64,000 nucleotides of DNA, from positions 1 to 64,000 of the forward strand of contig UYFQ01000023.1 of NCBI GenBank assembly GCA_900617105.1. Reading direction: 5' to 3'. The DNA comes from Hydrurus foetidus (lineage: Eukaryota). This document shows, in pieces, positions 40,583 through 47,134 of the stretch. Under the pieces are notes generated by a model. The model was given only the letters and a program-made list of their open reading frames with translations, had not been told where the DNA came from and ran no database searches. Within the stretch, counting starts at the first letter, position 1. Each line of letters opens with the position of its first letter. The position numbers and the translations under genes were made by a program.

Positions 40583-43256
<2,674 letters not shown>

Positions 43257-44114: not shown

Positions 44115-44363
44115 ATGTCGCAAATCACTTTGTATCTGGACGATGCCACGCAGGCATTGGTGGAGCATGCCGCGCAGGCCCACGGCCTGTCTAAAAGCCG
44201 CTGGGTGGCGGACATCATTCGGAAATACGCTGCGCATGAGTGGACGCAAGATTGCTTGGCCTTGGCTGGGCGGTTTGCTGACTTTCCACTGCGTGAAGAC
44301 AATCCTTTCAGCACCGCGCCCCCTGGTTTTCAGCCCGTGGATGCCGTGCGTGTTGGGTTTTAA
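44115..44363 (+). CDS. RHH/CopG-type antitoxin
   Basis: CAGGAG RBS; QITLYLDD...GLSKSRWVADII; lies upstream of a PIN gene. Confidence 0.85.
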   Translation: MSQITLYLDDATQALVEHAAQAHGLSKSRWVADIIRKYAAHEWTQDCLALAGRFADFPLREDNPFSTAPPGFQPVDAVRVGF

Positions 44364-44372
44364 AAACGCACC

Positions 44373-44783
44373 ATGCTGATTCTCGATAGCAACACCATCA
44401 GCTACTACTTCCGAGGCGATCCGCAGGTGGTGCCGCGCTTGCAAGCGCTGCGTCCTGCTGACCTTGGCGTACCAGCCATTGTGGAATACGAGCTGCGGTA
44501 TGGCTTGCTGCGCCTGCCCGCCATCGCCGCAGCCCCCCGGTTGGCTGCGTTGACGCAGCTTCTGCTGCCCATGCAGCTTTTACAGTTTGACAGTGAGTGC
44601 GCAGCACATGCCGCCCGTATCCGTATCGAACTGGAGACTGTGGGCACACCGATTGGCCCACACGACACGTTGATCGCCGCCACGGCACTGCGCTATCAGG
44701 CGACGCTGGTCACACGCAATGTGCGGGAGTTTTCCCGCGTACCTGGCTTGCAGTGGTTGAATTGGCACGAGTTGCCAAGTTAA
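44373..44783 (+). CDS. vapC: PIN-domain toxin (VapC family)
   Basis: ILDSNTI, VEYELRYG, IGPHDTLIAATA, LVTRNVREF. Confidence 0.93.
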   Translation: MLILDSNTISYYFRGDPQVVPRLQALRPADLGVPAIVEYELRYGLLRLPAIAAAPRLAALTQLLLPMQLLQFDSECAAHAARIRIELETVGTPIGPHDTLIAATALRYQATLVTRNVREFSRVPGLQWLNWHELPS

Positions 44784-44862: not shown

Positions 44863-45795
44863 ATGGGATCAAGACAGACACTTTACGAAGTTCTTCAAAT
44901 TGCACCGGGTGCGGGCAAAGCAGAGATTCAGTCGGCCTATCGGCATCAAGCCAATGCACTCGAAGAAAAGCGCGGCAGCATGAACTCAGATGAGTTCACA
45001 AACTGCATGCAAATGTTACGACTGGCTTTGAGCACCTTGACCGATCCGGTATCTCGACTTGGTTATGACGCCAAACTGACAGCCAACTCTGCGCCCTACA
45101 AGAGTTCAGGCGATTTACTGACACTTGTTCCACTCGAAAAGGCTGCGGTAGAGGCTGCGAACGAAACGCGTGCGGATGCGTTGTCCATGCGCGCAGATGC
45201 CCTTTCACTGCGTGCTGATGCCCTGCTGTTAAGGGGCACGCACGATGCGGCACCAACCCGATCAGACCGCCTGCTGAAAACCGCAGCGAAAGGTACGTTG
45301 AATGGGCTGGAGTACTTTATTCGGGTCATCGTTTTTCTAGTGCTCATGGGAATTACTGTGTTTCTCCTTGGAAAATGCACGACGGGCGGATCGTCTGCCT
45401 CTCGCGCTAAAGAAATCACCAGTGCGCAAGAAAAAACGGTTTTGCAGGAATACTTTCAAACCTATGGCGTGCGCCCAGCCAACATGGCGGAGCTTGAGTT
45501 ATTGGAGGCTGAACGTCGTCGCTCAGAAAATGGAGCGCGATCCAAAGTGCAGGATATTGACAAAGCTGAGCGTGAGGCTCAAAGGTTTGAGCAAGAATCA
45601 CGCAAACGGGCTGACGAGGTCAGTCGAGCGCTGCATAGGGCAGAAGAAAAGGCCGAATTTGATCAAAGACGCGATGCACAGGAGTTGCAGGCGAAAGAGG
45701 ATCGAGAGCGAAACCGGGCAGAGCGGGAACGCAACGCTGAAGCAAACCGGATAGAGCGGGAGCGGCAAGGTTGGCGAGACATCATGCGTCGATGA
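44863..45795 (+). CDS. Membrane protein with N-terminal J-like domain (no HPD), one TM and a charged coiled-coil
   Basis: TLYEVLQI..A..AEIQSAYR...ALSTLTDPVSRLGYD; TM FIRVIVFLVLMGITVFLLG; E/R/K-rich tail. Confidence 0.75.
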   Translation: MGSRQTLYEVLQIAPGAGKAEIQSAYRHQANALEEKRGSMNSDEFTNCMQMLRLALSTLTDPVSRLGYDAKLTANSAPYKSSGDLLTLVPLEKAAVEAANETRADALSMRADALSLRADALLLRGTHDAAPTRSDRLLKTAAKGTLNGLEYFIRVIVFLVLMGITVFLLGKCTTGGSSASRAKEITSAQEKTVLQEYFQTYGVRPANMAELELLEAERRRSENGARSKVQDIDKAEREAQRFEQESRKRADEVSRALHRAEEKAEFDQRRDAQELQAKEDRERNRAERERNAEANRIERERQGWRDIMRR

Positions 45796-46166
45796 ACGTG
45801 CTGCGCATGTGCCATCCATCTCAAACACTGCGCTGTTGGCTGCTGGCTTGTTTCATCATTCTGGCTGCAGCATGCTCACGTTCGCCGCAGCCAGTTGCAG
45901 AGAACTTCGTCGGCCAATGGCAATCATCTCGCATGGCCTCACGACCGGTTCATTTGCATGCCAATGGTGAATGGGAAATTAAATCTGAGGATGGGCATGT
46001 CATGCAATATGGTGTCTGGAAGATTCAAGGCAAACGCATGATCTGGACAGTCCGGATCAATGGCCGCATTGACCACGATGAAAACACCATCGTGTCATTT
46101 CGTAAAAATGAATTTGAGCTCACAGAACAGGATGGATCTGTTACCAAGTTCCAACGCATTGACTAA
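45792..46166 (+). CDS. Small lipoprotein, lipocalin-like beta-barrel
   Basis: ATGA overlap with the upstream stop; lipobox LAAAC; FVGQW, GVWKI, alternating beta pattern. Confidence 0.7.
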   Translation: MNVLRMCHPSQTLRCWLLACFIILAAACSRSPQPVAENFVGQWQSSRMASRPVHLHANGEWEIKSEDGHVMQYGVWKIQGKRMIWTVRINGRIDHDENTIVSFRKNEFELTEQDGSVTKFQRID

Positions 46167-46177
46167 GCAGGCATGCT

Positions 46178-47134
46178 GTGAACCACTATGACATGCTTGA
46201 AGTCAGCCCCAAGGCAAGTCCTGAGGTGATTCGTGCGGCTTACAAGAGTTTGATGCAACGCTTTCATCCTGACCGCAACCCTGGGGATCGGTTTGCGGCT
46301 GAGCGCACTTCACATATTGCTATTGCCTATGGTGTCCTGTCTGATGCGGCGCGACGTGCCGACTACGATGCCAGCTTAAGTCGTATTCATGAGAAGGTTT
46401 CAGTTCCGCATCAGGACTTGCGCAGCAAGCCTGAAACCTTCAGTACTGGCCCTTCGATAAAGCGCACTTTGCCCCCTGCAAGACACATGGCTGGCGACAA
46501 CCGATCAGCGCGCTGGAAAGGTCTTTTCATGGTGCTAGCTGCTTGCCTAGCCGCAGGGATTTGGCTGGCATCTTCACACACGAAAACGGTGGAACCCGTA
46601 TCAGAATTGGCCATGATTCGCCGGTCAATCACATCTGAGGCAACACCTGAATCTGAAAAATCTGACCTGTACGCCCGAAAACAGGAGATTCTCTCGTTTC
46701 ATCCGGGACTACAGCTCGCTGAATCAGCGGCACGCTCGGAAGACATGGCATGGCGCACCGTATCCCTTTTGCGCACCCCTTTGGTGGTAGAAATCAACGG
46801 TCACAACAACCCAGGTAAGCCGGTTGCCAAACTGACCATTCCCAGAATCAGTCTTCTGGTGGGTACGTTTGATGCGACCAACTTGGTGGCGCATATGGAA
46901 AAACACAGGCAACGTATCGTTGACGATTTATCGGCTGTCTTAGCCAACACGGCCCTCCATCGGCTTACTGAGCAAGGTACAGATAAACGCCTTGAAAACA
47001 TGATTCGCAAATCCGTTTCACAAAGTCTGGAATACCCAGAATTCAAAGCCTACCCGACAACCTACTTTGAATCCCCGGGACGCTATGGTGTGGTGGAGGT
47101 TCTGTTGCCTGACAATTTCAGCCTACAGCCCTGA
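46178..47134 (+). CDS. J-domain (HPD) membrane protein with FliL-like C-terminal domain
   Basis: NHYDMLEV...IRAAYKSLMQRFHPDRN...AYGVLSDAARRADYD; one TM; C-terminus HRQRIVDDL...GVVEVLLPDNFSLQ. Confidence 0.8.
   Translation: MNHYDMLEVSPKASPEVIRAAYKSLMQRFHPDRNPGDRFAAERTSHIAIAYGVLSDAARRADYDASLSRIHEKVSVPHQDLRSKPETFSTGPSIKRTLPPARHMAGDNRSARWKGLFMVLAACLAAGIWLASSHTKTVEPVSELAMIRRSITSEATPESEKSDLYARKQEILSFHPGLQLAESAARSEDMAWRTVSLLRTPLVVEINGHNNPGKPVAKLTIPRISLLVGTFDATNLVAHMEKHRQRIVDDLSAVLANTALHRLTEQGTDKRLENMIRKSVSQSLEYPEFKAYPTTYFESPGRYGVVEVLLPDNFSLQP

Follow-up and report, generated by a model that had tools for sequence, protein, structure and literature searches.

We analysed a 64,000-nucleotide stretch of the Hydrurus foetidus assembly GCA_900617105.1 (contig UYFQ01000023.1, positions 1 to 64,000; hereafter the window), in which three co-oriented open reading frames (ORFs), genes 1, 2 and 3, occupy positions 44863-47134 of the + strand (Table 1). 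They encode a predicted pair of membrane proteins, one with a J-domain carrying the HPD motif and a FliL-like domain and the other with an HPD-less J-fold and a long charged helix, together with a predicted lipoprotein. Genes 1 and 2 meet in an ATGA overlap (45792-45795) and an 11-bp gap (46167-46177) separates genes 2 and 3, which bore out the tight coupling given in a preliminary description of this DNA. The three-gene stretch is not an assembly artefact, because it was covered by a single public contig with flat depth and zero differences (possibly the source of the window) and because the soil sample of a second study also contained close variants, fragments of each of the three genes that differ little (e.g. 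21/877 bases). The surrounding genes and closest relatives point to a Comamonadaceae-like host.

Table 1. Coordinates and basis of the features of the three-gene module in the window.
Feature	Position	Strand	Description
Gene 1	44863..45795	+	310 amino acids (aa); HPD-less J-fold, heptad repeat, one transmembrane helix, post-transmembrane motif, long charged helix
Gene 1 predicted pseudo-J domain, residues 7-76	44881..45090	+	Pfam DnaJ E 7e-6; top Foldseek rows are J-domains, E 1e-3
Gene 1 threefold RA(D/E)A(L/M/I) heptad repeat	45169..45231	+	Just before the transmembrane helix; alignment of members
Gene 1 predicted transmembrane helix, residues 152-170	45316..45372	+	Lone hydrophobic peak in 126/127 members
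Gene 1 post-transmembrane motif E..LQEY.Q..GVRP...E	45427..45498	+	Best-conserved segment of the family
Gene 1 continuous charged helix, residues 208-309	45484..45789	+	AlphaFold block, predicted local distance difference test (pLDDT) 91-98; predicted periplasmic stalk
Gene 2	45792..46166	+	Predicted lipoprotein of 124 aa (Cys28) with a likely lipocalin-like beta barrel; optional member
Gene 3	46178..47134	+	318 aa, GTG start; HPD J-domain, linker, one transmembrane helix, helical hairpin, FliL/SPFH-fold domain
Gene 3 HPD motif, residues 30-32	46265..46273	+	HPD in 73/73 aligned members
Gene 3 predicted transmembrane helix, residues 115-133	46520..46576	+	Hydrophobic segment
Gene 3 helical hairpin, residues 140-192	46595..46753	+	Shortened or lost in many relatives
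Gene 3 FliL-C-like domain, residues 191-317	46748..47128	+	Confident AlphaFold model, fold searches

By its fold and HPD motif, gene 3 appears to encode a class C J-domain co-chaperone, which would stimulate an Hsp70 ATPase. Its N-terminus matched Pfam DnaJ (E 5.8e-18) and J-domain structures (Z about 10), so that the canonical HPD J-domain followed by one transmembrane helix, as first described, was confirmed. HPD was also found in all 37 genome copies reached through gene 1; the metagenome scan for gene 3 partly selected for HPD, and one metagenome copy outside the alignment reads HLD. The motif is required for Hsp70 stimulation according to parts of a paper that also lists the DnaJ residues facing DnaK as R22, K26, R27, K48 and K51 (PMC8215388). 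The basic face of helix II was kept in gene 3 (R/K at 19, 23 and 28), including the equivalents of R22 and K26, whilst the R27 position was Ser in 73/73 members and the K48 and K51 positions were not basic. Helix III carried Ala in 60/73 members at a position where the host DnaJ has Phe.

The C-terminal domain of gene 3 was assigned to FliL because PDB sequence, Pfam, ESM Atlas and fold searches all agreed. FliL was its top PDB sequence match (E 0.04), the Pfam family matched by most gene 3 members (9/69, all weak; best member E 0.0035) and the identity of the top ESM Atlas clusters (0.82-0.83, taken as a lead only). The modelled domain matched Helicobacter pylori FliL-C (7sgn) in Foldseek (E 2.6e-5, TM(target) 0.76) and in VIA-align (Z 10.2, root mean square deviation 2.7, 101/101 residues aligned), with lower scores against Vibrio FliL (Z 8.8) and SPFH proteins (Z 5.0-5.8). 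The FliL-like C-terminus proposed earlier from a residue pattern was therefore upheld by profile and fold searches. The window protein itself gave no match to PF03748 and so did not reach the FliL cut-off. In architecture, the modelled gene 3 protein is FliL-like, with one transmembrane helix followed by a predicted periplasmic fold of the FliL-C/SPFH type. A J-domain was present in 10/10 of the longer proteins found with a profile of this domain.

Gene 1 encodes a predicted pseudo-J protein, as judged by the missing HPD motif. Its Pfam DnaJ score (26.5 bits) fell just below the cut-off of 27.8. The AlphaFold model (pLDDT 85) showed a four-helix N-terminal domain with J-domains as the best structural matches, and a fold search with the model matched J-domains only. 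HPD occurred in 0/108 of the first gene 1 relatives and in 0/123 of the J-fold-containing sequences among 150 listed representatives, in keeping with the J-like, HPD-less N-terminus first noted. Three copies of the heptad repeat were present in 88/127 aligned members and absent from distant relatives, marking a possible self-association helix. The single hydrophobic segment likewise agreed with the one transmembrane helix first assigned to gene 1. In the model a short helix after it ends in the post-transmembrane motif, which took the form Y/F....G..P/A/V in 133/150 representatives. The tail was a single 102-residue helix composed of 48% E/R/K and only 14% L/I/V/M/F, equivalent by arithmetic to ~15 nm if straight. 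This retained the E/R/K-rich charged helix of the preliminary description and shortened its length from ~120 to ~100 residues; the coiled-coil label was dropped, the tail being closer to a single charged helix than to a classical coiled coil.

The gene 1 core gave no significant PDB or Pfam match, and the family was compact: a search of 1.84 billion proteins gave 175 clusters when grouped at 50% identity. This deep search was made with gene 1, and remote relatives of the gene 3 domain were less well covered. Source annotations of gene 1 relatives were either generic or clearly machine-assigned (hypothetical, J-domain-containing, CbpA, FlhF). Two proteins (P0234 and P0247) had the transmembrane/motif segment fused to unrelated domains without Pfam matches (~400 and ~350 residues), which replace the gene 1 tail or J-fold. 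A genome with genes 1 and 2 and no gene 3 (G757) also held two more HPD-less J-fold proteins (L197 and L201), and pseudo-J proteins may be commoner in that lineage.

Gene 2 has the predicted signal peptide and lipobox Cys of a lipoprotein. The Cys (in boxes such as LAAC and LGGC) and a GxW motif were invariant in 47/47 aligned members, supporting the small lipoprotein originally proposed; three distant relatives had no Cys and look signal-anchored. Asp at +2 was found in 1/47 members, which by the Escherichia coli rule would favour outer-membrane sorting. No significant PDB or Pfam match was obtained. The fold is probably a lipocalin-like barrel, as indicated by weak matches to TIGR03066 (E 1.4e-7, score 31.6, cut-off 93.25) and to lipocalin-like ESM Atlas clusters (0.88-0.90).

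The three genes were linked far beyond chance. Gene 3 lay directly downstream of gene 1 in 37/44 genome loci, and in the other seven the contig ended within 703 bases of gene 1; these loci were found through gene 1 in a scan of 49/64 parts of the collection. In an even family-level sample of 401 genomes, including the centre genome and with at most 10 candidates scored per genome, strong matches to both profiles fell in the same 13 genomes, once each, after three weak gene 3 matches (E 2e-4 to 7e-4) were left out. Genes 1 and 3 were adjacent in 12 of these and split over two contigs in one. Amongst metagenome gene 3 loci having room upstream, gene 1 was found there in 31/35. Many distinct chromosomal sites shared the gene order and strand, with identities of about 30-50%, and the conserved neighbourhood anticipated for the module was therefore corroborated. 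Identity matrices of genes 1 and 3 correlated (Spearman 0.62, 55 pairs), which we did not count as co-evolution because shared ancestry explains it. Gene 2 was less constant, being present in 20/37 complete genome loci. On a quick version of the tree its presence required 14 changes, at least 10 of them forced by well-supported branches, and was no more clustered than in shuffles. As gene 2 is optional, a rod docked on an outer-membrane lipoprotein, to which the preliminary description linked Hsp70, cannot be the core of the module.

Genus labels were scattered on the tree of the module, and cultured carriers included Rhodoferax ferrireducens BE313, Rhodoferax sp. OV413 and Roseateles strains. 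A phylum-level sample of 401 genomes returned only two genomes, both already seen, and the gene 1 family thus looks confined to Burkholderiales among the collections searched. One order-level match (G542, E 2.7e-4) was rejected as spurious, having no J-fold.

The pair was also independent of flagella, at least in Comamonadaceae bacterium AAW. This genome, titled a complete chromosome, carried an intact pair and no fliF, FliL, MotA or flagellin, so the FliL fold of gene 3 is not a flagellar part there, and the ion-driven stators suggested at first by the likeness to FliL were not supported. Across the module genomes, fliF exceeded its cut-off in 27/43; most of the 16 genomes without it were incomplete metagenome-assembled genomes. 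A Rhodoferax control genome had all four flagellar markers and an ordinary FliL on another contig.

From the observed folds, the presence of HPD in one protein and not the other, the linked genes and their independence of flagella, our preferred reading, held tentatively at a probability of roughly 0.3, is that the module is a flagellum-independent inner-membrane pair of predicted single-pass proteins that would recruit DnaK to a site in the envelope. Both proteins would be oriented N-in/C-out. On the cytoplasmic side gene 3 would contribute an active J-domain and, on the outer side, a FliL-type domain predicted to build a ring; gene 1 would act as pseudo-J partner and stalk for it. Like the domains of FliL and SPFH proteins, those of gene 3 may self-assemble and encircle or clamp the post-transmembrane segment of gene 1, a model drawn from FliL-C rings, which surround the MotB linker and share their ring habit with SPFH proteins in the account available from PMC8794807. 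In the cytoplasm a pairing of the two J-folds like that of Pam16 and Pam18 may position the stimulation of DnaK or damp it. Pam18 forms complexes with HPD-less Pam16 and its activity is lowered in vitro, by a logic described as unresolved in the portions consulted of PMC2695266 and PMC13254874. Whether or not the gene 2 lipoprotein takes part, pulling or binding on the ~15-nm stalk might alter this pairing, whereupon DnaK would assemble, remodel or clear a membrane complex; ring and pseudo-J partner would together set where and when the gene 3 J-domain acts. DnaK is the likely default partner because no dedicated Hsp70 gene neighbours the module and only two usual full-length Hsp70s were common to 5/5 genomes checked. 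The narrower proposal, by analogy, that a FliL-type ring clamps the 15-nm helix and that periplasmic tension or binding activates Hsp70 through a J/pseudo-J switch seems to us rather unlikely.

Several observations weigh against recruitment of DnaK by such a pair. In an order-level sample of 401 genomes, eight more distant genomes had gene 1 and no gene 3 was found in them (gene 1 with gene 2 in three, three tandem gene 1 paralogues in three and gene 1 alone in two), and 4/35 metagenome loci had gene 3 without gene 1 upstream. Either protein can therefore exist without the other nearby and pairing is not universal, which counts against a fixed three-part machine; nor was a fused gene 1-gene 3 protein found among 150 representatives. 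Because helix III departs from DnaJ, gene 3 may stimulate DnaK weakly or only under some conditions. The positive-inside bias was mild (64/127 gene 1 and 37/73 gene 3 members), a modelled FliL fold is not proof of ring formation, and inhibition of yeast Pam18 by Pam16 is reported as not critical in the part of PMC13254874 consulted.

The solo loci bear on another account of the module, in which the core unit in the envelope is gene 1 with gene 2, the J-fold of gene 1 mediates interactions independently of Hsp70, and gene 3 is a later paralogous addition that solely chaperones assembly or turnover of this unit, without trans-membrane signalling. We consider this doubtful. It would explain the three genomes with genes 1 and 2 and no gene 3, two of them essentially single-contig, and the triplets or singles of gene 1 in five more, and the gene 1 J profile scored gene 3 J-domains at 48-50 bits against 42-45 for host DnaJ, which fits a common origin of genes 1 and 3 without proving it. 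However, gene 1 never occurred without gene 3 in the sampled family (13/13), and a pure assembly chaperone has no obvious need of a conserved periplasmic FliL fold. Alternatively, gene 3 could be a specialised flagellar FliL paralogue that tunes stators like MotF, a FliL paralogue with its own role being known (PMC9541039, in the part available). FliL is indeed the closest fold and most module genomes counted above had fliF, but the intact pair in a complete non-flagellated genome largely refutes this idea. The 16/43 genomes without fliF, the lack of any flagellar gene in 104 neighbour proteins and the separate FliL kept by the flagellated control genome count further against it, and we regard it as very improbable.

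We judged it unlikely that the module serves type IV pili or type II secretion, a reading in which gene 1 is a pilin-like membrane protein that stays uncleaved and DnaK is brought to the base of the pilus by the FliL-fold ring together with the J-domain. In hhalign, 61 columns spanning the transmembrane helix and motif of gene 1 aligned in register with GspG (E 0.0015, probability 17%); for type IVa pilins the values were E 0.0017 and 16%, and a gene 3 control had a probability of 0.2%. At these weak scores the motif resembles the alpha1-C/loop region of both, through a shared pattern (L..Y....G..P.....L..L). Neisseria pilins made up 4/10 PDB rows for gene 1 (E 0.7-4), pilin and GspG genes were present in 5/5 genomes checked, and one genome had genes 1 and 2 within an MSHA-type operon, flanked by an ExeA-like ATPase gene and mshL (L149:5824-7351). 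Nonetheless, the comparison was chosen post hoc and an unrelated enzyme ranked better in the PDB search. Gene 1 has neither the conserved Glu5 nor a prepilin cleavage site (G/F-x-x-x-E), the latter being excluded because ~150 residues precede the transmembrane helix. An obligatory MSHA link was rejected, as the genes were absent from 16/16 other mshL-region stretches and MshL exceeded its cut-off in only 14/55 genomes; with no cleavage site and such stretches lacking the genes, the pilin likeness stays a rival only. Less likely still is an anti-phage sensor or entry-blocking system. Its patchy spread (13/401 family genomes), many insertion sites and scattered genus labels would suit such a role, as would the toxin-antitoxin genes adjoining the module here and at four other loci and the low GC content at third codon positions (GC3) of the window genes (0.50-0.52, against values of 0.74-0.76 in padR and glnS), an indication that this copy may be a fairly recent acquisition. 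Yet the GC3 gap averaged only 0.04 in 42 other loci and exceeded 0.1 in just 7/42, and searches of plasmids with the gene 3 domain, and of phage records and viral contigs with the gene 1 core, found no copy. No effector domain was present and the three proteins matched nothing in PADLOC 2.0.0 beyond one low-complexity match (E 0.009). Among 120 neighbours, six matched PADLOC at E<=1e-20, of which only the AbiE pair of one locus is plausible defence, the others appearing to be housekeeping homologues; the phage-sensor role and proximity to defence islands raised in the preliminary description were thus unsupported. Finally, J-domain and transmembrane proteins are common, but chance adjacency of three unrelated genes is refuted by the recurrence of their order and strand at such divergence and we give it next to no credence. 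The remaining probability is assigned to roles outside these readings.

No recurring fourth gene was found around the module, as no other ORF cluster spanned more than 7 of ~70 loci. The 104 neighbour proteins scanned were mostly varied housekeeping genes with no Hsp70 among them, and no translocase gene recurred. A promoter and terminator scan gave no signal above shuffles. In the window, a vapBC-like toxin-antitoxin pair (44115-44783, +; an RHH-like gene and a PIN gene, E 3e-20) precedes gene 1 by 79 bp in the same orientation and is not conserved near the module elsewhere. A convergent SRAP gene follows gene 3. Further upstream, an 859-aa flavoprotein reductase-like ORF (40583-43162, -; family assigned by eye) lies beside a PadR regulator and carries ~150 additional residues as a C-terminal domain.

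Some neighbourhoods of related loci were distinctive. Two solo gene 3 copies (L026:5734-6639 and L019:1572-2477) were downstream of a response regulator/PAS/PP2C-like signalling cluster, and a third (L033:2028-4997) was downstream of PIN-like and membrane restriction-endonuclease-like ORFs, which had no PADLOC match at 1e-20; these ORFs were assigned by eye. LiaI/LiaF-like membrane genes, of a family tied to cell-wall stress, followed the module in a Roseateles-like clade (L115:8431-9590, L114:8369-8797 and L100:8302-9342), a weak association as it was seen in this single clade. The tandem divergent gene 1 triplets of three related genomes, without genes 2 or 3 (L143:6694-8948, L144:7216-9469 and L145:4649-6914), had pilin-like genes within a few kb and an mshL-like secretin roughly 15 kb away.

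The preliminary description did not recognise this architecture as a named system, and the family searches agreed, with no curated cut-off passed by the three proteins except that of the generic J-domain. No description of the module was found in the literature searched, which left most subscription papers outside reach. In a survey of J-domain proteins (PMC10410713), FliL and SPFH were absent from the text available, and FliL, PF03748, Band_7 and Comamonadaceae from one supplement. Although its parts are known folds, the architecture as a whole fell outside the FliL, pilin and known defence families, with Pam16-Pam18 as an analogy only. A 2026 review, in the part consulted, states that the relevance of pseudo-J-domain proteins is not yet elucidated and that the Pam16-Pam18 mechanism is enigmatic (PMC13254874). 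The role of FliL and the purpose of pseudo-J proteins are both open. The module takes the FliL fold outside the flagellum and supplies a bacterial J/pseudo-J pair of two genes, in cultured, non-pathogenic hosts where deletion, HPD mutation and pull-down are straightforward. Its importance rests on architecture and linkage, with function a matter of interpretation. Trans-membrane coupling, if true, would be a new route from envelope cues to Hsp70, and the clamp and switch would be a bacterial counterpart, in logic, of Pam18-Pam16 and would give the FliL fold its first function outside the flagellum.

Compared with known systems, gene 2 shares the GxW N-terminal motif, ~100-residue beta-rich body and lipobox of TIGR03066/lipocalin-like lipoproteins, and differs in scoring far under the cut-off and in forming its own family, associated with gene 1. 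In DjlA the anchor is N-terminal and the J-domain C-terminal, and the DjlA model matched only 30 J-domain residues. Together with DjlB/DjlC, which act with HscC, DjlA represents the membrane-anchored J-domains of Gram-negatives; DjlB/DjlC are tail-anchored and encoded near a dedicated Hsp70 according to the sections seen of PMC8215388, whereas no Hsp70 lies beside the module. Like the mitochondrial pair Pam18/Tim14-Pam16/Tim16 (PMC2695266 and PMC13254874, both in part), the module combines a membrane HPD J-protein with an HPD-less J-like partner, a co-occurrence with exceptions in distant genomes. The likeness is an analogy only: no sequence or fold match to Pam16/18 was present among the rows listed, the neighbourhood holds no translocase and both module proteins have large predicted periplasmic parts. 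The J-folds are N-terminal in the module, whereas the J-domain of Pam18 is C-terminal. SPFH scaffolds (HflK/C, stomatin, erlin), described as membrane-anchored ring scaffolds in the available text of PMC8794807, are related in fold to the gene 3 domain at a weaker match than FliL; unlike them, gene 3 has no SPFH-type coiled coil after the domain, the long helix being on gene 1, and has a J-domain attached. FliL (PF03748), which self-assembles into rings of 9-10 members, and paralogues such as MotF are closest, with a single transmembrane helix followed by the FliL-C fold at 13-17% identity. Gene 3 is set apart from them by a score below the Pfam cut-off, a fused N-terminal HPD J-domain, an extra helical hairpin, a longer loop before the last strands, a position outside flagellar clusters and its occurrence without motA/fliF.

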